Shown: piece by piece, positions 243 to 35,973 of the stretch | Layout of the letters: each line of letters opens with the position of its first letter | Position numbering within the stretch: position 1 is the stretch's first letter | NCBI GenBank assembly: GCA_942490825.1 | Contig: CALNYG010000015.1 | Span: 88,073 to 152,072 of the forward strand | Source: Candidatus Moraniibacteriota bacterium | GTDB lineage: Bacteria; Patescibacteriota; Minisyncoccia; Moranbacterales; GCA-2747515 | Reading direction: 5' to 3' | Length of the DNA stretch: 64,000 nt | Notes under the pieces: model-generated | Told to the model about the DNA's origin: nothing | Databases searched by the model: none | The model's input: only the letters and a program-made list of their open reading frames with translations | Position numbers and translations under genes: made by a program

Positions 243-254
243 TTTTTCTATTTT

Positions 255-548
255 CTAATATTTTACTTCTTTTTTACTTTTTAAAATATTCCTTAATTTT
301 TTAGTTGCTTTTTTTACCCATCTTAATATACTAACGTTACTAACTTTCAGTATTCTTCCTATTGATCTAAATCCTAGTCCCTCTAAATACATTTCAATTG
401 CTTTTTTCTTAATTTCTTTAGGTTTTCCTCTTTTTGTAAATCTAGAAAAGTTATAGCTACATTCTTTACATAGATATCTTTGTTTTTTATTTACTTTACC
501 ATTTTTAACATAATTCTTATTATTGCAATGAGGGCATTTAATTTTCAT
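255..548 (-). CDS. IS1 InsA-like protein (zinc finger plus helix-turn-helix)
   Basis: 97 aa. It has CPHC...CKEC zinc-finger pairs, then an HTH-like segment (GLGFRSIGRILKVSNVSILRWVKK), as in IS1 InsA. It ends at a TAG at 255-257. Confidence 0.75.
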   Translation of the reverse strand: MKIKCPHCNNKNYVKNGKVNKKQRYLCKECSYNFSRFTKRGKPKEIKKKAIEMYLEGLGFRSIGRILKVSNVSILRWVKKATKKLRNILKSKKEVKY

Positions 549-628
549 TTTTTTGTTTTTAGGTATTTAATTACCTATTCATTTTACATTATCTATAGTT
601 TGGTAGCAATACCGAATTATTTACTCTT

Positions 629-1828
629 TTGGATAAAGTTCTTTGTGTAAAAATATTAGTTCCATTTTCTATTTTTATGCTTTTACTATTTTCATTTCTT
701 CCTTCTTTGAATTTTTTCGATGATGAAATTAATATTCTTATAATTTCAATTTTTGTTATTTATTTATTTTTTATATCTATTGTTTTTAAAAATATCTGGG
801 AATGGTTCATGAAAGAAAAAGATTATTTCATAGTTAAATTTCTTAAGAGTTTAGATGTTAAAAAAGATAAGCAAAAGATTTTGGATTCTTATGAGTCTTT
901 GTGGTTGAGGAATATTTCAGCGGAAAGAGAAAAAGAATATACAGAAATTTTTTGTGATGAAATAACTAAATTTTTAAATATAAAAGATTATAAAAGTGCA
1001 GTTAGAATAACACGATTTTATCTGAATGATATAGATAAAAGGGTAAATCTTTGGGTAATGGCTAATTTGTTTTTTTCAAATGTTTTAGATTGGATGAGAA
1101 TAGAAAAGGAAATAATAGATGTTGAAGAAAATTGGAATAAACTAGAAATGTATGATACGAAAAATGGATTTCGTTATTTTAGAAGTGATGTATTGACTGA
1201 TATTTTTGAGTTTCTAGTAAAGAAAGATGGATGGAATTTTTATGGTATTTATGATGTTGCTAAAAGAGAAAATGATTTAGATATATTGAAACATTTTTTT
1301 CATTTATTATTTGAAATTATAATTGATGAAAAAAATAATGATAAAGTTCAAATAATATTAAAACATTTTCCAAGTAAATGGAAGATAACAAGAGAAAATT
1401 TTATTCAAAAACATCAAGAAATAATTATAAAAAAATTTTTAGAAATTTTAGAACATCGTATTATAAAAAATATTCCAGAAAAAAAGTATGATCTTGTTTT
1501 AAATGAACTTGTTTCAGAATTATTTCCAGAAGTGGAACATGATGTATTTATTAATTCTATCTATCTTTTTTATTTTAGAAGTAAAGAATTTATAAGTAGA
1601 GATGAGAGATTAGGGATAACTATTGCGATTGATGGAGATATCGATGATATGATTAAAGATACTATTGAATTATTTAAATTATTGAATCCAAATTTTTACG
1701 GAAATAAAAATAAATTGGAAAAATTAAAAGCAGATTTTAAAGAAATGAAAGTATCTAATGAAACAGAAGAGAAAAGAAAGGATGACGCTTTGAAAATAAT
1801 TAATATGTATTTAGAAACTTTTAAATAA
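629..1828 (+). CDS. hypothetical membrane-anchored protein
   Basis: 399-aa ORF with a TTG start in the ORF track. Two N-terminal hydrophobic helices are followed by a K/E/I-rich helical region. No family motif recognised. It is very AT-rich and wedged between the IS end and a hairpin-repeat cluster. Confidence 0.5.
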   Translation: MDKVLCVKILVPFSIFMLLLFSFLPSLNFFDDEINILIISIFVIYLFFISIVFKNIWEWFMKEKDYFIVKFLKSLDVKKDKQKILDSYESLWLRNISAEREKEYTEIFCDEITKFLNIKDYKSAVRITRFYLNDIDKRVNLWVMANLFFSNVLDWMRIEKEIIDVEENWNKLEMYDTKNGFRYFRSDVLTDIFEFLVKKDGWNFYGIYDVAKRENDLDILKHFFHLLFEIIIDEKNNDKVQIILKHFPSKWKITRENFIQKHQEIIIKKFLEILEHRIIKNIPEKKYDLVLNELVSELFPEVEHDVFINSIYLFYFRSKEFISRDERLGITIAIDGDIDDMIKDTIELFKLLNPNFYGNKNKLEKLKADFKEMKVSNETEEKRKDDALKIINMYLETFK

Positions 1829-24965: not shown

Positions 24966-27404
24966 TTGAAAGATTATTGTCCGTTGAATTTTGATTTGGA
25001 TTCAGTTTATTTAGAATTTGATTTGGCGAAAGACACAACTCAGGTTTTAAGTAAAATGGATTTTTCTAATTTTAAAGATAAACAATTGAAACTTTATGGA
25101 GAAGATTTGGAGTTGAAAGAAGTTTTATTGAACGATGAAAAAGTTGATTTTGAAAAAGTTGATGGTGCGATTATTTTGAAAGATTTGCCAGAAAAATTTT
25201 CGCTTTCAATAAAAACAATTATTCATCCGGCGAAAAATACAGCGTTATCAGGCTTGTATCAGTCGGGTGATATTTTAGTTACGCAGAATGAACCACAAGG
25301 ATTTCGGCGAATGACTTATTTTACAGATCGTCCAGACGTGATGACAAAATATACCACAAAATTAATTGGAGATAAAAAAGAATTTCCAGTGATGCTTTCA
25401 AATGGAAATGCGATTGGAAGTGGCGAATTGGAAAATGGAAAACATTTTGCGATTTGGGAGGATCCTTTTAAAAAGCCTTCTTATCTTTTTGCGGTGGCGG
25501 CGGGTGAGTTTGATTTGTTGCGAGATAAGTTTGTTACGATGAGTGGTCGGGAAATTGATCTGAGGATTTATACTGATCCGGGAGAATCTCACAAAGCTAA
25601 ATTTGCGATGGAGTCGTTGAAAAATTCTATGAAGTGGGATGAAGAAAAATTTGGTTTGGAATATGATTTGAATATGTATATTATTGTGGCGGTGAGTTCT
25701 TTTAATGCCGCTGGGATGGAAAATAAGGGATTAAATGTTTTTAATAGTCGTTTTGTTTTTGCTGATCCAGAAAAATCTACCGATGTTGATTTTATGAATG
25801 TAGAAAAGGTAATTGCTCATGAATATTGTCATAATTGGACAGGTAATCGTGTTACTTGTCGTGATTGGTTTCAACTTACTTTAAAGGAAGGATTGGTAGT
25901 TTTTCGTGAACAATTATTTAGTGGAGATGTGCGTGATCAAACTATTCAAAGAATTTCTGATGTGGAGTTTTTAAAATCTTATCAATTTTCTGAGGATGCT
26001 TCACCTAATGCTTATCCGATTAAACCGAAAGAGTATTTAGAAATAAGTAATTTTTACACTCCGACGGTTTATGAAAAGGGTGCGGAAGTGATTCGTATGA
26101 TGTACACTTTATTGGGGAAAGAAGGTTTTCGTAAGGGGATGGATTTGTATTTTGAGCGACATGATGGTGATGCGGTTACGACGGAAGATTTTGTTTCGGC
26201 GATGGAGGATGCGAATGATTTTGATTTATCTGATTTTGTTCATTGGTATGATGACGCGGGAACTCCAAAATTAAAAGTTGAGGAAAATTTTGAAAATGGT
26301 AAATATTCTTTGCGAATCAGTAAAGATAAGAAAGCGATGTTACCTTTAAATTATGCTTTATATAATAGAAAAAATGGTGAAGTTTTAAAATCTGAAACTT
26401 TGCATTTAGTTGATGAAATTAAAATTGAAGTTGATGCGGATGAAAAGCCTGTTTTATCTTTGAATCAAAATTTTTCTGCTCCAGTCGTTCATGATTATAA
26501 ACTTTCTTTGAAAGACAGTTTGTTTTTAGTGGAATATGATGAGGATTATTATAATCGTTATGATGCGGTACAAAGTGTTTATTTGGAAGATATTATAAAT
26601 GGAAATGTTGAGAATAGTATTGAAGCTTTTGGTAAAGTTTTGAATTCTGATGTGAATGATTATTTGAAAGCTTACATGTTGAAATTGCCGAATTATCCGA
26701 CAATTTTTGGTCGTTATGAAAAAGATTTGCCAATTGAAAATATTTATCAGCAAATTGATAAAATGAAAAAAGCGATTCGAGATAAATTTAAAAAGGAATT
26801 GCGTGAAATCGTTGATCGGGCGAGCGGGACTGAAGCGACTGATTTATCACAAGAATCAATGGGAAGGCGAGCGATTAAAAATATTGTATTAAGTTATTTA
26901 GATGATAAAGATTTAGCTAAAGAAGATTATGCTAAATCTTTAACAATGACAGAGAAAATAGTTGATTTGCAAATAGCAAAAAATGATGAGTTGTTTGATG
27001 ATTATCTTGAAAAGCATAGAGATGATAAAGATATGGTGGTTAAATATTTTCAGATTATTTCTTTGAATAGTGAAGAGAATCCGATTGGCAAAATTAAAGA
27101 GTTATTGAAATCTGATCTATTTGATTACAAAGTGCCTAATTTAATTCGGGGATTGATCGGTGTTTTTGCGATGAATTATCGATTCTTTTTTACGGAAGAG
27201 GGTGTGGATTTTTTCGTTGAAGAATTGAAAAAGATTGATAAAATGAATCCAGAAATGGGATCACGACTTTGTAGTTCAATTAATCTGTATCCTAAATTGG
27301 AGGAAAAAACTCAGGAAATGGTTTATAATAAACTGAAAGGTTTTTATAAAAGTGATGATATTTCAAAAAATGCTTATGAAATTTTAAATAAGATTTTTGG
27401 ATAA
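24966..27404 (+). CDS. pepN: aminopeptidase N (M1 family)
   Basis: GAMEN-type motif AAGMENKG. Zinc site HEYCHNWTGNRVTCRDWFQLTLKEG. The TTG start comes from the ORF track and the start is uncertain (see findings). Confidence 0.9.
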   Translation: MKDYCPLNFDLDSVYLEFDLAKDTTQVLSKMDFSNFKDKQLKLYGEDLELKEVLLNDEKVDFEKVDGAIILKDLPEKFSLSIKTIIHPAKNTALSGLYQSGDILVTQNEPQGFRRMTYFTDRPDVMTKYTTKLIGDKKEFPVMLSNGNAIGSGELENGKHFAIWEDPFKKPSYLFAVAAGEFDLLRDKFVTMSGREIDLRIYTDPGESHKAKFAMESLKNSMKWDEEKFGLEYDLNMYIIVAVSSFNAAGMENKGLNVFNSRFVFADPEKSTDVDFMNVEKVIAHEYCHNWTGNRVTCRDWFQLTLKEGLVVFREQLFSGDVRDQTIQRISDVEFLKSYQFSEDASPNAYPIKPKEYLEISNFYTPTVYEKGAEVIRMMYTLLGKEGFRKGMDLYFERHDGDAVTTEDFVSAMEDANDFDLSDFVHWYDDAGTPKLKVEENFENGKYSLRISKDKKAMLPLNYALYNRKNGEVLKSETLHLVDEIKIEVDADEKPVLSLNQNFSAPVVHDYKLSLKDSLFLVEYDEDYYNRYDAVQSVYLEDIINGNVENSIEAFGKVLNSDVNDYLKAYMLKLPNYPTIFGRYEKDLPIENIYQQIDKMKKAIRDKFKKELREIVDRASGTEATDLSQESMGRRAIKNIVLSYLDDKDLAKEDYAKSLTMTEKIVDLQIAKNDELFDDYLEKHRDDKDMVVKYFQIISLNSEENPIGKIKELLKSDLFDYKVPNLIRGLIGVFAMNYRFFFTEEGVDFFVEELKKIDKMNPEMGSRLCSSINLYPKLEEKTQEMVYNKLKGFYKSDDISKNAYEILNKIFG

Positions 27405-28312: not shown

Positions 28313-29923
28313 TTAAAATAAAGTATTTTCTTCAGGGAATGCAATTTGAAATAGTGAATTTATATTATCACTATTTTTATCAATAAAGAATAAAATATCA
28401 TTGCGGTGATCGCTAATTATTTTAGTTTTATCAGTGCTTAAGGTAGAGATTGTTTGAGGATTGCTTTTTCCACGATCATCCATTTCAATTATTTTAATCT
28501 CATTTCCAGAAGAGAAAATTACGTGTTCATAATCCTTGGAAAAGTGAATATTTTCTATTTTTTTAGATCGTCTAGTGATTACTTTATTCTCATCTTCTTC
28601 TCGTTGAGGCTGGTCTTTCCATTCTCGAGTGAAATAAACAAATATTTCAGATTTAGAGTAGTAAATTAATTTTTTTCCGTCATTAGAAAAATGAGCTCCA
28701 ACTATTCCAGTAGCTAGTTTTTTAGAATAAATATTTTTATCACCTTTATTGTATAAGTAACAATCACCAGTCTTATCATCTATTGATACAATTCTATTTT
28801 TATCATAAGCGATTAATCGGTATTGTGAATTTTTACCATTATCATTTTCATATGAAGTAATTTCTTTTAATTTCGTAGCTTTGATATTATCATCATAAAG
28901 CAATTCTCTTTCCTTGTTTAAAATATAAATGCCGTCATCAGCAAAATCATATGCTAAGGTTTCAGGATAAATTTCTTCATATTCTAAAGCGGTTTCATCT
29001 TCTAAATTAAAGGATATCGTATATAATTTTTGGTTGCTTAAAAAGTAAAGTGATTCTTTATCTTTTGGATGCCAACGAACATCAGATATTAATTCTCTTT
29101 TTTTATCTTCTGTTAAGGCATCGTTATTTTCTTCAATAAATATTTTATCGGATAGATAAAAATAACTGTCTGTTTTTAGGTTAAAAATAGCATAGTCTTT
29201 AAATTCTTCAGTAACGTTTTGATTTGTAATATTTTCATTTTTTAAGTCAAAATTACGTTCAGTTTCTCCTATGGTTTTATTATCTCTGTTTTCACTTTCG
29301 ATATTTTCATTGTTAACTTGACGAATAACTGGCACAATAATTGATGAGCTTGCAGGAGACCATTCTATATTTTCATATGTATTATCAGTAAATTTTACGT
29401 TTTCTAAAACGATTTGATTTTGGATTTCATTATCATCTGTATTAATTATGTTAACTTCTAGACCAATACTTTTTTGGTTTGTGTATGCAAATACAAATTC
29501 TTCAGGTGCAGGAAAAAAATTATCGATATTAGGTGTATTAATTTTTGTACGTTTGTAATTTTCTCGAACTAATAAAACATTCCATAGTTCGGTGGATAAT
29601 CCGCTATGGATAGAAATGTTTTTGGTCCAAGGTTTAAAACCGTCAGCTGTAATTTCGATATTATAATTTCCGTGACGTAATCCGTTGATCTGATAAGAGT
29701 CATTAATTATATTTAGGTAACGACTTTTTGGTTTTTTACCATTAACTTTTATTGTTACATTTTGAGGGTTGGCTTTAACTGTTAATGATCCAGAATGAAG
29801 CCAGATATCTCTGATAAAATCACGTCGATATCCAAAAACTAATCCAATAACAATGGTTGTAGTTAAGATGCAAGAAAAGGCTAATGTGAAAAAAAATACT
29901 TTTCTAGGTAATGGAGTTTTCAT
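28313..29923 (-). CDS. membrane-anchored PEGA-domain protein with a probable beta-propeller
   Basis: N-terminal TM helix. A PEGA-like segment (SLTVKANPQNVTIKVNGK...GNYNIEITADGFKPW). A long beta-rich C-terminal region resembling TolB/WD40-like repeats. Confidence 0.5.
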   Translation of the reverse strand: MKTPLPRKVFFFTLAFSCILTTTIVIGLVFGYRRDFIRDIWLHSGSLTVKANPQNVTIKVNGKKPKSRYLNIINDSYQINGLRHGNYNIEITADGFKPWTKNISIHSGLSTELWNVLLVRENYKRTKINTPNIDNFFPAPEEFVFAYTNQKSIGLEVNIINTDDNEIQNQIVLENVKFTDNTYENIEWSPASSSIIVPVIRQVNNENIESENRDNKTIGETERNFDLKNENITNQNVTEEFKDYAIFNLKTDSYFYLSDKIFIEENNDALTEDKKRELISDVRWHPKDKESLYFLSNQKLYTISFNLEDETALEYEEIYPETLAYDFADDGIYILNKERELLYDDNIKATKLKEITSYENDNGKNSQYRLIAYDKNRIVSIDDKTGDCYLYNKGDKNIYSKKLATGIVGAHFSNDGKKLIYYSKSEIFVYFTREWKDQPQREEDENKVITRRSKKIENIHFSKDYEHVIFSSGNEIKIIEMDDRGKSNPQTISTLSTDKTKIISDHRNDILFFIDKNSDNINSLFQIAFPEENTLF

Positions 29924-30791: not shown

Positions 30792-30808
30792 AGAAATTCA
30801 GAAGACTT

Positions 30809-30838
30809 TTGTTTTAAATACTTGTTCAATGCTATAAT
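30809..30838 (+). promoter_or_regulatory. promoter of the alpha-2-macroglobulin gene
   Basis: TTGTTT (30809-30814), an 18-nt spacer, then extended -10 TGCTATAAT (30830-30838). Confidence 0.45.
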
Positions 30839-30867
30839 AAAAATATTAATAATTTAAAAATAAAACT

Positions 30868-33800
30868 ATGAAAAAAGCCTTTTTGCTTTTGGGAATGATT
30901 ACTTTATTTTCTTGTTTTCCAATGTTTCGATCAGTGTTTCAACAAGAGGCTAAAGCAGAAGATAAGCCAGAGCCAAGTTTATACTTGACTGGTAAAAATA
31001 TATATCAGCGAAATGGTTTGATTTCCTTTACATCACAAGAATCTGCAGTAGTTGAAGTTGAAGGTAGAGATCTTGAGGAAAGTGAGATTACGATAGATGT
31101 TTATGATGCAGATATGCAGGATGTTTTAAGATTTTTAACTTATGATGATGAGGATAAGCAAATTAATAGTGAGGTTTCTTTGGAGGGTAGAGATGAAATT
31201 GCTACTTTTGTAACGAAATGGAAAGATAGCTTTGAATTGCCTTTTGGAGATAAGAATGGCGTTTTGCTAATACATGCTAAAGCTGGTGAATTGGAAATCT
31301 ATTCATTTGCAATCCGTTCTAATGTTGGGGCTGTTGTTACAGAAGTTCAAGATGAACTCTTAATTTGGTCTCAAAATTTTGATACTAAAAGAAAAGAGAA
31401 TAATCAAAATGTTGTTTTTTATAGTTTAAAAAATAATGTCTTAAAGCAAAAAAGTGTTACTACAAACAGTGAGGGAATTGCAACAACTCCAATTTCTAGT
31501 CAGTATGATATAGCAATTGTTGGTGATGGGGATGACTTAGCTTTTGTCCCAATTGGTATGCGACAATTAGGTTATGGAGGTAATTATTCATTTGCAAATC
31601 AAAGTCCAAATAGTAAATTTTTTATTTTTACTGATAGATCTTTATATAAACCAGGAGATAAAATTTATTTTAAATCAATTTTACGTGATGATAATGATGT
31701 AAATTTTGTTATTCCATCAGGAAATTGGCGAGCGAAAATTGTTTATGGCTGGGGTGATAGTGAAGAGATTATTAGAGAGCAAAATTTTACTGTTAATGAA
31801 TATGGAACTTTTGATGGAGAATTTAAATTACCTGAAAATGTAAATACAGGTGAATATAGATTTGTTGTTGAAAAAATAGATGAGGAGCAGAAGAGTAGTG
31901 ATTATTGGTGGGATGAGGGTTATGGTGAGGTTTATTTTCAAGTAGAACATTACCGTAAGCCAGAATACACATTGGACATGGAGGTAGATCAAACCCAACT
32001 TATAAATGGTAAGAATATTACTTTTAATATTGAGGGTGAATATTTTTCAGGACAGCCTTTAAATGGAGTGGAAGTTGAGTACACTGTTAGAGAAAGTGAT
32101 TTTTACAATAGTACTTTTTATTATCCACAACAAATAGATAATTTTAATTACAGACGTTATTATGGTAAAGAAATTGAAAAAGGAAAGGCAGTTTTAGATG
32201 CTGATGGTTCAGCTCAAGTTTCTGTTAATACAGATATTAAAGATGGGGAAAATAAAATTTATTCTATTGAATTAAGTTATGCATCGGAAGCTGGTGGTGA
32301 AAATGTGAGGGAACAAAAAAATGTTTTAGTTTTTGCCGGAGAATATAATATTTATCGAGAAAGTCATAAATATAGTTTTCATGTGGATGAGGAAATTAAA
32401 TTAGATTTAATTTTAAAAGAAAACAAAGAAAAAGCAGATTTAGCAGGTAAAAAGTTAACAGTTGCTCCAAAGCGAATTTGGTGGGAAAAAGAGTTGGTTG
32501 ATGATTTGAGAGACAAGTCACGCTATAATTACAAACGTAAAGAAGAGATTCTTGAAAATTTTGAAATTATTACAGATTCTCAAGATAGGGCGGTATTACG
32601 TTTTAATCCACAAAAATCTGGATCGTATGAGTTTAAAGTTAAGAGTATGGATTCGCAAGATAATAGTATTGAGAAGACTTTTAGTGTCTGGGTTTCTGAT
32701 AAGTATTATTCTTATAGTGGACAGGGTTCAAAAGAATTAAATGTGATTCTTGATAAAAATAGTTATGAACCAGGAGAAAATGTTACAGCTAGTATCTCTT
32801 CAGAAATGCCAGACAGAGATATTTTATTTTCAGTGGGAAGAAATTTTATTCACGAATATAAAGTTGTTTCTATGAATGGAAATTCTGTTAATGTTGATTT
32901 TCAGGTATCGGATGATTATATGCCAAGTGCTAAAGTGGAAGCAGTTAGTTTCTCAAGTGACAAAATTAATACAAGCTCTACAAGTCTTCAGGTTTCAGCC
33001 CAGAAGAAAAGATTGGATATTTCAATAGAAACTGATAAAGATATTTATAGTGCTGGTGAGGAAGTGAAGGCAACAGTTAAAGTTACAGATCAAAATGGAG
33101 AACCGCAAAAATCTGAAGTGGCTTTATGGGCTGTGGATAAAGCTTTATTTGAATTATCGGATCCTTCTGGACAAAAGTCTTTTGATTCTTTTTGGAATTA
33201 TCGATATGGAAATGTTAGTTTCACACATTCATTGCGAGGTCTGTCAATTAATGCTGCTGAGAAGGGAGGTTGTTTTAAAGCAGGGTCTCAAATATTAATG
33301 TCAGATAGTTCGACTAAAAATATTGAAGAGGTTAAAGTTGGAGATTTTGTTTTGACCAGAGAAAATGAAAATAGTGAAAACTTAGTTAAGGAAAAAGTTA
33401 TAAAAACTCATAATGTCGAAGTTGATGGATATTTTGTTATTAATAATAATTTAAATGTTACAGAAAATCACGTTGTTCGAGTAAATGATGAATGGAGACG
33501 TGCTGATCAAATTAAGATTGGAAATTATTTAATTGATCGAGATGGTAAAAATGTGACAGTTGAATCGATTGAATGGAGAAAAGAAAAAACGATGGTCTAT
33601 AATTTAGAGATTGAAGATAAACATTCCTATTTTGTGAATGGTGTATGGGTTCATAATGGAAAAAGTGGAGGTGCTGGACGGTCTGTTTTTAAAGATGTAG
33701 CTTATTGGAATCCGAAGATTGTAACTGATAAAAATGGTGAAGCAGAAGTTTCTTTTAAATTATCTGATGATTTAACAACCTGGGCATTTTCTGCAGTTGG

Positions 33801-35856
33801 TGTTACTAAAGATACAAAGGTTGGAAATGCTAATCATGAAATTAAAGTTTCGCAACCTGTTATTTTACGTCCGTATTTGCCAAATATTTTTTACACAGAA
33901 GATGAGGTGAATGTTTCAGTGGAGGCTCAAAATTTTTCTGGAAAGAAAAGGAATTTTCAAGCGAAAATCGAATTTGACGGTGGAGAAGTAAAAAATAATT
34001 TGCAGGAAATTGAAATTGAAGATGGAGAAACGAAAGAAATTATTTTTACAATTTATCCCAAAGAAGAAAAAGATGCTCAATTAACTTTTTCTTTAAATTC
34101 AAAAGATGAGGAATCTGTTGGTGATAAAATTACGAAAAAAGTTTCAATTGAGAAGTTTGGATTTTTAGAAAAAAGTTCTTCAGTGCATAAAGCTAATGAA
34201 AATATAAATTTGCAAATTAATGAAGATGCTTTTAATGATAAAACTGAAGTGAATTTAGAAGTTTCAGCGACTTTATTAGGTTCTTTGCCGAGTGCAATTG
34301 ATTATTTGATAGATTATCCTTATGGTTGTATTGAACAAACAACTAGTCGTTTTAGAGCGGTTTTGGCGGTGAAGCAAAATCCAGAAATTTTTTACAAAGC
34401 TAATCAAGAAAAGGATATTGATGCGATTTTAAATGAAGGAATAAAACGATTGAGTAAAATGCAAAATTCTGATGGTGGCTGGAGCTGGTGGAGCAGTAAA
34501 AAATCATCACCGTTTATTTCTATTTATGTGGCGGAAAGTTTACTAGAGGCAAAAGAGGTTGGGGTTGAGGTTGATGAAGAAATGATTAATTCTGCTGAAA
34601 AATATTTTTCTGAGTATTACTATTCTGAATTTAAACGACTTGAATCAGATGTAGACAAAAAAGAAAGATTAATTGTTGTAAGATATGGAAATTCACTTTT
34701 TGGAAAAAATAATGGAATGGTGCAGCTTTATTCTAATTTAGATCCAGATATGATCGCTTTGGGTGTGATGGCAAATATTCGAAATGGTTTCACTAATCCG
34801 AATGAAAATGGTTTAAATATTTTAAAAAATAAACTTCAACAGGAGGGTAATTACAAATATTGGTTAAGTGCTGATTATAATCGCTTTGGTTCAGCAGATG
34901 CTTCAACGGCATTGGGATTGAGGGCTTTTTTGATGGCTGATGTTGAAAAAGATGAGATTGATAGTATTGTTAAATATTTGACGAATTCGAGGAAAAGACA
35001 ATATTGGAATAGCACTTTTGCAACCTCGAAAGTTATTGGTGCTTTGATGGATTATGCTGATAAGCATGAATATAATTTAAAAGTTAATAAAAATATTCAG
35101 ATTTACAATGATGGAGAGAACATTTTAAATGAAACTTTAAGTTTGAAAAATCATTCTGTAAATATTCCTGTTTCTGTTAATGATATTAAAAAAGAAGGTT
35201 CTAATTTGAAAGTTCAGAGCAATGATGACGTATATATTACTTTGATCAAGAAAGAATTTAGAACAGATAGAAATGCTCAGGTTGTAAGTAATGGCATTTC
35301 AATTGAGAGAAATTATATAAATAAAAATGAAACAGGTGAGATTGGTAAGGGAGATATTGTAGATGTTGAGGTGAAAGTGAGTGGTTTAAATAAAGATAAC
35401 GCATATTTAGTAGTGGAAGATAAGTTGCCAGCCGGTTTAATTCCTGTAAATGAAAATTTGAAAAATGTTTCTTCTGAAAGTGACGCTTATATAAATTATG
35501 ACTATGCCCAGCGGGAATATACTAAAAATGGTGTTATTCTTCATAGAGAGAATATTAACTCAGGTTCATTAATTTTCAATTATAAAGCTAAAGCGATTGC
35601 TAGCGGAGTTTTTATTGATCCGCCAACGGTGGCTGAGATGATGTACAATCCTGATATTTATGCTCGAACTGGTGTACAGACTTTAGAAATTAGTTTGGAA
35701 TCCCAGAAAGAAAGTTTGGAAGATTTCAATGCTGAAATGAAATCTTGGTTTAAAAAAATATTTGGATATAGTCGAGAGATTTTGGTTATCTTTGTTTCGT
35801 TTGTTGTGATTACTTACGGAATTATTGTGTTGGTTAGAGATAAATTTAAGGTTTAA
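30868..35856 (+). CDS. bacterial alpha-2-macroglobulin family protein with a thioester motif and an inserted Hint domain
   Basis: 1662 aa. Signal peptide with lipobox-like LFSC. MG-domain body. Post-bait signature FKDVAYWNPKIVTDKNGEAEVSFKLSDDLTTW. Thioester GCIEQ (CIEQ at 34327-34338). C-terminal TM helix. Confidence 0.85.
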   Translation: MKKAFLLLGMITLFSCFPMFRSVFQQEAKAEDKPEPSLYLTGKNIYQRNGLISFTSQESAVVEVEGRDLEESEITIDVYDADMQDVLRFLTYDDEDKQINSEVSLEGRDEIATFVTKWKDSFELPFGDKNGVLLIHAKAGELEIYSFAIRSNVGAVVTEVQDELLIWSQNFDTKRKENNQNVVFYSLKNNVLKQKSVTTNSEGIATTPISSQYDIAIVGDGDDLAFVPIGMRQLGYGGNYSFANQSPNSKFFIFTDRSLYKPGDKIYFKSILRDDNDVNFVIPSGNWRAKIVYGWGDSEEIIREQNFTVNEYGTFDGEFKLPENVNTGEYRFVVEKIDEEQKSSDYWWDEGYGEVYFQVEHYRKPEYTLDMEVDQTQLINGKNITFNIEGEYFSGQPLNGVEVEYTVRESDFYNSTFYYPQQIDNFNYRRYYGKEIEKGKAVLDADGSAQVSVNTDIKDGENKIYSIELSYASEAGGENVREQKNVLVFAGEYNIYRESHKYSFHVDEEIKLDLILKENKEKADLAGKKLTVAPKRIWWEKELVDDLRDKSRYNYKRKEEILENFEIITDSQDRAVLRFNPQKSGSYEFKVKSMDSQDNSIEKTFSVWVSDKYYSYSGQGSKELNVILDKNSYEPGENVTASISSEMPDRDILFSVGRNFIHEYKVVSMNGNSVNVDFQVSDDYMPSAKVEAVSFSSDKINTSSTSLQVSAQKKRLDISIETDKDIYSAGEEVKATVKVTDQNGEPQKSEVALWAVDKALFELSDPSGQKSFDSFWNYRYGNVSFTHSLRGLSINAAEKGGCFKAGSQILMSDSSTKNIEEVKVGDFVLTRENENSENLVKEKVIKTHNVEVDGYFVINNNLNVTENHVVRVNDEWRRADQIKIGNYLIDRDGKNVTVESIEWRKEKTMVYNLEIEDKHSYFVNGVWVHNGKSGGAGRSVFKDVAYWNPKIVTDKNGEAEVSFKLSDDLTTWAFSAVGVTKDTKVGNANHEIKVSQPVILRPYLPNIFYTEDEVNVSVEAQNFSGKKRNFQAKIEFDGGEVKNNLQEIEIEDGETKEIIFTIYPKEEKDAQLTFSLNSKDEESVGDKITKKVSIEKFGFLEKSSSVHKANENINLQINEDAFNDKTEVNLEVSATLLGSLPSAIDYLIDYPYGCIEQTTSRFRAVLAVKQNPEIFYKANQEKDIDAILNEGIKRLSKMQNSDGGWSWWSSKKSSPFISIYVAESLLEAKEVGVEVDEEMINSAEKYFSEYYYSEFKRLESDVDKKERLIVVRYGNSLFGKNNGMVQLYSNLDPDMIALGVMANIRNGFTNPNENGLNILKNKLQQEGNYKYWLSADYNRFGSADASTALGLRAFLMADVEKDEIDSIVKYLTNSRKRQYWNSTFATSKVIGALMDYADKHEYNLKVNKNIQIYNDGENILNETLSLKNHSVNIPVSVNDIKKEGSNLKVQSNDDVYITLIKKEFRTDRNAQVVSNGISIERNYINKNETGEIGKGDIVDVEVKVSGLNKDNAYLVVEDKLPAGLIPVNENLKNVSSESDAYINYDYAQREYTKNGVILHRENINSGSLIFNYKAKAIASGVFIDPPTVAEMMYNPDIYARTGVQTLEISLESQKESLEDFNAEMKSWFKKIFGYSREILVIFVSFVVITYGIIVLVRDKFKV
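33271..33657 (+). other. Hint / bacterial intein-like (BIL) domain, 129 aa, in-frame inside the A2M gene
   Basis: Block A CFKAGSQILMSD...VGDFVL, block B VTENH (TxxH), block F VYNLEIEDKHSYFVNG, block G VWVHN. The residue after HN is Gly. Confidence 0.75.
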
Positions 35857-35973
35857 TATAAAAAATAAATTAAGATTTTATAATTTTGAAATGTAGTAGA
35901 TGGTTTTAAACCATTTGTTATTTATATTTTTAAGCTATTGTTATTATAGATACAAAATTATATTTTAAAAAAA

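Follow-up and report, generated by a model that had tools for sequence, protein, structure and literature searches.

A thioester alpha-2-macroglobulin from Candidatus Moraniibacteriota with a bacterial intein-like Hint domain in its bait loop

A 64,000-nucleotide stretch of contig CALNYG010000015.1 from a Candidatus Moraniibacteriota bacterium (positions 88,073 to 152,072 of the forward strand, assembly GCA_942490825.1; hereafter the window, meaning the whole stretch) encodes a 1662-residue alpha-2-macroglobulin (A2M) whose bait loop carries an embedded, 129-residue Hint domain. The domain belongs with the type-A bacterial intein-like (BIL) domains and recurs at the same site in the A2Ms of many bacteria of the Candidate Phyla Radiation (CPR, or Patescibacteria). 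To explain this architecture, we propose that a type-A BIL in the bait loop of an exported, C-terminally membrane-anchored thioester A2M removes itself without the help of an external protease, leaving either a religated protein or two chains, a reading that we hold to be slightly more probable than not. The placing of a known autoprocessing module at the site that triggers a known trap, an arrangement widespread in CPR bacteria, is apparently new. We found no literature that links Hint, intein or BIL domains with macroglobulins, although most subscription journals were outside the coverage and this is not proof; within that coverage, the remark of an earlier note on this DNA that it knew of no description of the architecture stands.

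Identity and fold of the embedded Hint domain

Nucleotides 33271-33657 translate in frame into a block of 129 amino acids, CFKAGSQILM...VYNLEIEDKHSYFVNGVWVHN, which ends in VWVHN and is flanked by ...NAAEKGG on its N-terminal side and by GKSGGAGRSVFKDVAYWNP on its C-terminal side. Its key residues are Cys802 (33271-33273), Thr865 and His868 of the block-B T-x-x-H motif (33460-33471), Asn912 of block F, and the terminal pair His929-Asn930 (33652-33657). The best-scoring Pfam model is PT-HINT (PF07591; E 1.9e-14, 54.5 bits, cut-off 27.7). Intein_splicing (38.6 bits, cut-off 35.8) and Vint (27.3, cut-off 27) also exceed their thresholds, Hint (PF01079) and Hom_end_hint match below their own, and the NCBIfam model intein_Cterm (TIGR01443) matches residues 910-930 with a score of 17.3 (cut-off 15.6). 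Hidden Markov models of both the Hint and the A2M families thus match significantly, which bears out the earlier note's description of a clean in-frame block (residues 802-930) with a Cys1, a T-x-x-H motif and a terminal His-Asn. Considering (i) the profile matches, (ii) the A2M parts of the same protein, and (iii) a GC content of 0.30 in the block compared to 0.28-0.35 in the remainder of the gene, the Hint block is real, far beyond chance.

The AlphaFold model of the Hint domain alone is all-beta and has a pLDDT of 96.8. With this model as a query, Foldseek returns BILs, inteins and Hedgehog proteins with a probability of 1.00 and TM-scores of 0.73-0.90. The top neighbours are the BUBL BIL2 structures 6Y75/6TMM (E 1.9e-10, TM-score 0.89) and 2LWY (TM-score about 0.9), below which canonical inteins and Hedgehog proteins are ranked. 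The sequence relationships are alike: in a search of the PDB with the family profile, the best solved relative is the Clostridium thermocellum BIL 2LWY (E 1.8e-18), followed by Tetrahymena BUBL BIL2 and a polymorphic-toxin Hint domain, and the best intein (2e-10) is eight orders weaker. Block F carries an Asn in both the A2M domain (VYNL) and 2LWY (VYNF).

The profile matches, the Hint beta-fold, Cys802 and the block-B T-x-x-H motif place the block in the Hint/HINT superfamily. Within it, PMC4031507 defines type-A BILs as Hint domains that possess a C-terminal His-Asn and lack a Cys, Ser or Thr at the +1 position. The block ends in His-Asn, is followed by Gly and is closer to BILs than to inteins or Hedgehog proteins. 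It is a type-A BIL-like Hint domain with intact catalytic residues, and no other Hint domain was found in the window. Two further assignments were considered and rejected. Hedgehog/Hog-type sterol transfer does not fit a domain that ends in His-Asn and is followed by a bait linker, and the sub-threshold PF01079 match covers only positions 7-97 of the 213 in that profile. Release of a toxin, as in pretoxin-HINT proteins, does not fit the downstream domains, which are A2M, TED and bMG10 with no toxin domain among them.

The Hint domain is inserted into the bait loop

In an AlphaFold context model that spans the BRD (bait-region domain), the Hint domain and the following macroglobulin (MG) domain (amino acids 615-1035), the Hint domain has a pLDDT of 77-95 over most of its length, and the linkers on its two sides (model residues 166-186 and 319-328, equal to protein residues 780-800 and 933-942) fall below 50. 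The predicted structure is therefore that of a confident Hint fold, with solved BILs as its nearest neighbours, held between disordered linkers.

A phmmer alignment, in which the offset was fixed by the thioester cysteine Cys1187 of Escherichia coli ECAM (PMC4498604), pairs residue 781 of the A2M with about residue 925 of ECAM and residue 953 with about residue 977. Since residues 923-942 of ECAM constitute its disordered bait, and, once ECAM has been cut, residues 956-963 become bound to its C-terminal MG domain (PMC4498604), the interval 781-953 brackets the ECAM bait and the Hint domain lies within the bait. Alignment to the insertion-free relatives P0006, P0009, P0022 and P0023 displays a gap-free insertion of about 129 residues between a Gly run and an R-x-x-F-K-D-x-A-Y-W-N-P motif; at the insertion site (marked by a slash) the Hint-less proteins read ...AEMGGG/GNEDLR.... 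The placement at the bait put forward in the earlier note is thus supported, with one amendment: the Hint domain does not replace the bait but sits as an insertion within a short, Gly-rich loop, of which about 20 and about 10 linker residues remain around it.

The segment that follows the insertion, R-x-x-F-K-D-x-A-Y-W...L-x-D-D-L-T-T-W, aligns with the alpha'NT/MG6 region of complement C5 and C4 by way of the Hint-less protein P0006, whose segment pairs with 'RSYFPESWLW...LPDSLTTWEI' of C5 and is equivalent to the alpha'NT/MG6 of C3, C4 and C5. Judged by these alignments, the Hint slot is topologically the position of the bait and of the anaphylatoxin (ANA) domain of C3, C4 and C5.

Family spread and conservation of the junction

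The family was gathered by a whole-protein search, an exhaustive Hint-profile search of representative proteins (50,702 matches, E <1e-3) and scanning of the species genomes in GTDB; the exhaustive search superseded an earlier word-indexed one that had given just 8 short proteins. The whole-protein search retrieved about 20 A2Ms that are 31-75% identical and carry a Hint domain at the same site, together with four close relatives that do not. Among the 80 best GTDB loci, 49 have a Hint domain, and about 49 of the 53 closest loci retain it. With at least 75 distinct A2M-embedded copies collected, in 49 species genomes, the architecture turns out not to be particular to this genome but to be a family trait of many CPR bacteria. 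The hosts are mostly Patescibacteria, namely Moraniibacteriota, Daviesbacteria, Woesebacteria, WWE3, Microgenomates, Paceibacterota, Saccharibacteria and Peribacteria.

A CPR-type Hint-A2M, often with the Memo-like partner gene described below, is also found on third-party annotation (TPA) contigs of metagenome-assembled genomes (MAGs) that are labelled Micavibrio, Nevskiaceae, uncultured Gammaproteobacteria, Pseudomonadales or Bdellovibrionales (loci L002, L005-L007, L009, L013, L016, L018, L019, L022, L024, L025, L027, L031, L032 and L034-L037). Either these proteobacterial labels are in error or the gene has reached bacteria outside Patescibacteria.

Several A2Ms with a Hint domain at the bait site lack the CxEQ thioester (loci L041-L045 and proteins P0292, P0295, P0279 and P0028), which shows that retention of the Hint domain is not tied to the TED thioester. 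The earlier note's notion of two thioester chemistries in one protein cannot apply to these members and is therefore not universal.

In the 75 copies, Cys1, Thr64, His67, His128 and Asn129 (numbered from the start of the domain) are each conserved at 100%. The conservation extends into the flanks: Gly occupies the −1 position in all 75 copies and the −2 position in 74, and the +2 position is always Lys, for which the Hint-less relatives have no equivalent. The +1 residue is Gln (38 copies), Asp (17), Glu (9), Gly (6), Asn (3), Leu (1) or Ser (1), but never Cys or Thr. The earlier reading of the +1 Gly as a BIL pattern, not one of class-1 splicing, therefore holds for 74 of the 75 copies.

These counts bear on whether the block could be a canonical class-1 intein or an inactive Hint fold that serves as a folded decoy or bait, possibilities to which we attach next to no weight. 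An intein would be in keeping with the Intein_splicing match at the Pfam cut-off, the sub-threshold match to Hom_end_hint and the presence of all four canonical intein motif blocks. However, the +1 nucleophile that class-1 splicing requires is absent from every copy but one, the site is a disordered variable loop of a secreted protein and not a conserved site of a housekeeping enzyme, the 129 residues contain no endonuclease region, and BIL structures outscore inteins in both the sequence and the fold searches. The canonical class-1 intein was rejected accordingly. As for an inactive fold, full conservation of Cys1, the Thr, the His and the His-Asn across proteins of 23-75% identity would be unexpected.

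The flanks also bear on a reading in which the Hint domain is a second covalent warhead: a thioester at Gly801 would be passed to a Lys of another protein (a protease, the host surface or a cell-wall amine), and the A2M would bear two independent acyl-transfer sites. This is suggested by the Gly-Gly directly before Cys1 and by the nearest fold, BUBL BIL2, reported in PMC8616854 to attach its N-extein, with no need of ATP, to the lysines of several substrates; moreover, the Hint-bearing members devoid of a TED thioester would in this way keep one covalent chemistry. The Gly run is a feature of the host, however, and occurs also where there is no Hint domain, the invariant Lys two residues past the Hint domain favours an intramolecular acceptor, and the flanks are BRD and MG domains, with no ubiquitin-like N-extein. 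We regard transfer to a second protein as very improbable.

The closest relatives of the domain outside A2Ms form tandem arrays of 2-9 copies in surface proteins (P0129-P0275, for example P0129, P0133, P0137, P0139 and P0170), which carry Laminin_G_3, PKD, CARDB, Big_9 or pilin-like N-termini. The junction of the array domains is typically G/C...HN/K-G, where slashes mark the domain boundaries, and 174 of 263 domains have Lys at +1. This BIL subfamily appears to be marked out by a Lys beside its C-terminal Asn.

Evolution of the Hint domain and its host

Pairwise identities of the Hint domains and of their hosts correlate (r = 0.81), and with an identity of 45% compared to 37%, the Hint domain is the more conserved of the two. 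In a neighbour-joining tree of the host columns, the Hint-less proteins are found at two places inside the Hint-bearing clade and the outgroup carries a Hint domain, a topology that suggests ancestral presence followed by at least two losses. A Hint domain of the same 129-residue type (43-55% identical) is also found at this site in further A2M architectures, the approximately 2230-residue Shapirobacteria and 1850-residue Peregrinibacteria types (P0278-80, P0292 and P0295), whose hosts are just 23-28% identical; P0028 carries a more divergent Hint domain of 145 residues, again at the same site. These patterns are best explained if the Hint domain dates far back in this A2M clade as a whole and has been passed on mostly by vertical inheritance. 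A recent insertion was rejected on account of the uniform GC content and the co-divergence of the Hint domain and its host. An apparently truncated Hint remnant at locus L048 (CAZERT010000003.1) proved to be a masked run of N inside the domain and was dropped as evidence of decay.

The same patterns allow the case for a neutral or selfish passenger to be weighed. According to this alternative, the domain is akin to a mini-intein, has no homing endonuclease, splices itself out efficiently, adds nothing to the function of the A2M, and persists only since the bait loop would be obstructed by an inactive copy. It would use the same chemistry as the self-removal that we favour, the sporadic losses are precise and leave the remainder of the protein visibly unchanged, and the nearest relatives outside A2Ms are multi-copy Hint domains scattered in surface proteins, as is typical of the spread of BILs. 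Nevertheless, an imprecise in-frame deletion should be tolerable in a flexible loop with similar Gly codons, yet nearly all of the closest loci keep the domain. Furthermore, the Hint domain is more conserved than its host, at least three further A2M architectures have it at this position, and the junction residues GG and x-K-G are invariant. Persistence in a deletion-tolerant loop, recurrence across A2M classes and an invariant junction make a passenger the less likely reading, and we consider it rather improbable.

Proposed mechanism

Combining these observations, we propose the following course of events. After export and folding of the protein, Cys802, helped by Thr865 and His868, would convert the Gly801-Cys802 peptide bond into a thioester. 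Asn930, aided by His929, would then cyclise, cutting the Asn930-Gly931 bond; as there is no Cys, Ser or Thr at +1, no branched ester intermediate would form. An amine would resolve the Gly801 thioester, be it the newly formed alpha-amine of residue 931, as in the route of type-A BILs, or the epsilon-amine of the invariant Lys932, as in that of BUBL BIL2, and the product would be a religated A2M with a short Gly-rich bait like that of the Hint-less relatives. Resolution by water would instead yield a two-chain A2M. In both outcomes the activation loop would be processed without an external protease.

The scheme follows precedents described in two sources: an N-terminal thioester, Asn cyclisation and then aminolysis or hydrolysis in type-A BILs (PMC4031507), and, in BUBL BIL2, a Lys isopeptide formed from a thioester at the C-terminus of a ubiquitin-like N-extein (PMC8616854). 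For the A2M itself, the occurrence of this chemistry, the nucleophile that resolves the thioester and the effect on A2M activation are inferred. In the Hint-less relatives, the loop is of the same short length and uninterrupted, and both the thioester and the Memo-like partner are retained, so that the mature products are plausibly alike and loss of the Hint domain would be tolerable. As relatives with these features are nested within the Hint-bearing clade, religation is favoured as the main outcome.

Several points weigh against this reading. (i) According to PMC4031507, type-A BILs give mainly cleavage products in vitro, and religation may thus be a minor route. (ii) Because the Gly run occurs also in A2Ms without a Hint domain, the conservation of Gly at −2 and −1 is not specific to Hint chemistry. 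(iii) Lys at +2 could be catalytic, but it could equally have a structural role. (iv) Conserved catalytic residues are also to be expected of any intein-like passenger whose failure cripples its host. (v) The high identity of the Hint domains across distant A2M classes could reflect lateral transfer and not constraint. (vi) The neighbour-joining tree that suggests an ancestral Hint domain and at least two losses carries no support values.

The dominance of cleavage in the in vitro data on BILs also keeps alive an alternative in which the Hint domain acts as a protease in cis. Hydrolysis of the thioester, cyclisation of Asn930, or both, would cut the bait loop without religation, and the freed alpha'NT-like N-terminus, GKSGGAGRSVFKD..., would trigger a conformational change and exposure of the TED thioester, much as release of C3a by convertase does, possibly in response to an environmental cue. 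The Hint domain sits at the ANA/bait position, its cut on the C-terminal side would lie 7 residues upstream of R-x-x-F-K-D-x-A-Y-W, the conserved motif that aligns with the alpha'NT of C5, and in ECAM it is the untethering of the bait that drives activation (PMC4498604). On the other hand, constitutive self-activation would lose the TED thioester to water, several Hint-bearing members lack a thioester that could be fired, and the uncut loop, thioester and Memo-like partner of the nested Hint-less relatives are a poor fit with an ancestor that was obligatorily two-chain and pre-fired. We judge such self-firing to be unlikely, although it is the main rival of the reading that we favour.

A broader supposition, that the Hint domain is the trigger of the trap and that CPR A2Ms are protease-independent, self-arming or self-firing proteins with Lys-directed acyl transfer at the GG/C...HN/x-K junction, seems to us a doubtful one. 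If true, excision of the Hint domain would take the role that convertase or protease cleavage has in C3 and A2M, the product could be an isopeptide 'splice' within the protein or a conjugate of the 800-residue N-terminal half with a target lysine, and episymbiotic bacteria could fix themselves, or a trap, covalently to the surface of their host or prey.

The host protein and its genomic neighbourhood

The features of the A2M gene and of its conserved neighbour are collected in Table 1. The best sequence relatives of the 1662-residue protein in the PDB are E. coli ECAM (YfhM) and Salmonella A2M. Cys1154 of its GCIEQ motif pairs with the CLEQ thioester of ECAM, and the motif is kept as GCxEQ in 24 of 25 aligned homologues. 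Its MG domains, BRD, TED with CxEQ and C-terminal MG10 are those of a type-I (thioester) bacterial A2M, and the earlier account of the open reading frame (ORF), including its thioester and its C-terminal hydrophobic helix, is confirmed. So is the spacing between the Hint domain and the thioester: Asn930 and Cys1154 are 224 residues apart.

Table 1. Coordinates of the Hint domain, its host gene and the Memo-like neighbour in the window
Feature	Nucleotides	Amino acids	Strand	Basis and remarks
Host A2M gene	30868..35856	1662 aa	+	ORF; Pfam MG2, BRD, A2M, TED, bMG10 and embedded Hint
Putative N-terminal signal peptide or signal anchor MKKAFLLLGMITLFSCFPMFRSVFQQEAKA	30868..30957 (extent approximate)		+	Sequence; hydrophobic N-termini in most relatives
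MG2 domain		250-343	+	Pfam
A2M bait-region domain (A2M_BRD)	32737..33156	624-763	+	Pfam PF07703, E 1.7e-17
N-side bait linker YGNVSFTHSLRGLSINAAEKGG, ends Gly-Gly	33205..33270	780-801	+	AlphaFold pLDDT <50; ECAM alignment
Type-A BIL-like Hint domain	33271..33657	802-930	+	Pfam, NCBIfam, AlphaFold, Foldseek
C-side bait linker GKSGGAGRSVFK, with +1 Gly931 and Lys932 (33661-33663)	33658..33693	931-942	+	AlphaFold pLDDT <50
Post-bait motif RSVFKDVAYWNP...LSDDLTTW and next MG (Pfam A2M) domain	33679..33954	945-1029 (PF00207 match)	+	PF00207
TED domain		1140-1248	+	Pfam
Thioester motif GCIEQ (Cys1154, Gln1157), within TED	34324..34338		+	Alignment to ECAM CLEQ
bMG10 domain		1476-1596	+	Pfam
Predicted C-terminal transmembrane helix ILVIFVSFVVITYGIIVLV, then basic residues	35779..35835		+	Sequence; equivalent hydrophobic stretch in most relatives
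Memo-like gene (PF01875), predicted N-terminal transmembrane helix	35974..36876		+	Pfam E 3.8e-31

A lipobox-like LFSC near the N-terminus reads ICSC in P0002 and LFSS in P0003, and is absent from more distant members. As its Cys is not conserved in close homologues, the lipoprotein anchor hinted at in the earlier note is doubtful, and the A2M family is probably anchored via its C-terminus and not by a lipid. The coding strand has a uniform and strongly positive GC skew (0.27-0.52) over 30800-35900 of the window, a region with a GC content of 30%.

A Memo-like gene is encoded at 37 of the 49 Hint-bearing loci, in most of them directly downstream of the A2M gene and on the same strand. It is also present at two close Hint-less loci (L049 and L051), but not beside distant A2M clades, and is a conserved partner of the A2M gene in this clade of Patescibacteria. 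At loci L001-L052, its stop-to-stop frame often adjoins the A2M gene directly or reaches into the end of it. The Memo-like gene alone is conserved, eight other neighbouring genes displaying no conserved synteny. Upstream of the A2M gene lie an M1-family aminopeptidase with DUF3458 C-terminal domains (24966-27404, + strand), which is not syntenic in related loci, and a protein with sub-threshold PEGA/CarboxypepD_reg-like matches (28313-29923, − strand), which was seen elsewhere in the 70%-identical Moraniibacteriota locus L001 alone and is likewise not syntenic. A scan of 10 flanking ORFs (21.8-43.5 kb) revealed no penicillin-binding protein (PBP).

Significance

BIL domains were described in 2003 and their natural role is still unclear. 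Here, a Hint domain sits in the loop through which the A2M/complement fold is activated, a site where the consequence of cleavage is well understood. The invariant junction of at least 75 natural variants, together with natural Hint-less controls, provides an experimental handle both on the native role of a BIL and on the question of whether the arming or firing of a thioester protein can do without an external protease. The findings also add a widespread surface-protein feature and an A2M-Memo gene pair to the poorly understood envelope of CPR bacteria. If its ligation is efficient, a compact domain of 129 residues that has Gly at −1 and needs no Cys, Ser or Thr at +1 could serve in protein engineering.

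Comparison with known systems

ECAM/YfhM and Salmonella A2M (SaA2M) share with the protein described here the MG ring, the BRD, a CUB/TED with CxEQ and the C-terminal MG10, and all are membrane-tethered and extracytoplasmic; in ECAM-type A2Ms, the bait loop likewise precedes the thioester by some 225-260 residues. Sequence identity to ECAM is low, however, and the bait is here a short Gly-rich loop bearing a folded, predicted autoprocessing domain. The anchor, too, is different, being a predicted C-terminal transmembrane helix with no conserved N-terminal lipid anchor. Furthermore, the conserved neighbour is Memo-like, whereas ECAM is paired with PBP1C (PMC4498604).

The A2M Hint domain shares with the pretoxin-HINT proteins (PF07591) its best Pfam model, a BIL-like subtype and a location in secreted proteins, but it is followed by an MG/CUB/TED/MG10 body and a transmembrane helix instead of a toxin. 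With type-A BILs such as C. thermocellum BIL4 (2LWY), it has in common the Hint fold, the N-terminal Cys, T-x-x-H, His-Asn, the lack of a +1 nucleophile and the occurrence in secreted, non-housekeeping proteins (PMC4031507, citing Amitai 2003, Dassa 2004 and Aranko 2013). It differs from them in that its host is an alpha-2-macroglobulin, in which it is inserted at a functional trigger loop, and in the invariance of its junction, GG/C...HN/x-K-G. Moreover, type-A BILs are scattered in hypervariable proteins, whereas the A2M Hint domain co-diverges with its host across a deep clade.

BIL2 of Tetrahymena thermophila BUBL1 (6Y75/6TMM; Chiarini 2021, as summarised in PMC8616854) directly follows a ubiquitin-like domain, just as the A2M Hint domain directly follows Gly-Gly. 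A Lys amine is a candidate acceptor in both, a role that in the A2M is suggested by the invariance of Lys at +2. According to PMC8616854, Zn2+ activates BIL2. BUBL BIL2 is eukaryotic, has ubiquitin-like flanks and is about 25% identical in sequence to the A2M Hint domain.

Complement C3, C4 and C5 offer a parallel in architecture. They, too, carry a removable folded domain between the halves of MG6, just N-terminal of the alpha'NT, whose N-terminus is freed by its removal, and the alpha'NT motif R-S-x-F-P-E-S-W-L-W of C5 has a counterpart here in R-S-V-F-K-D-V-A-Y-W. The ANA and Hint domains are not homologous: ANA is helical and is cut by an external convertase, whereas the A2M domain has a Hint fold and could cut itself out.

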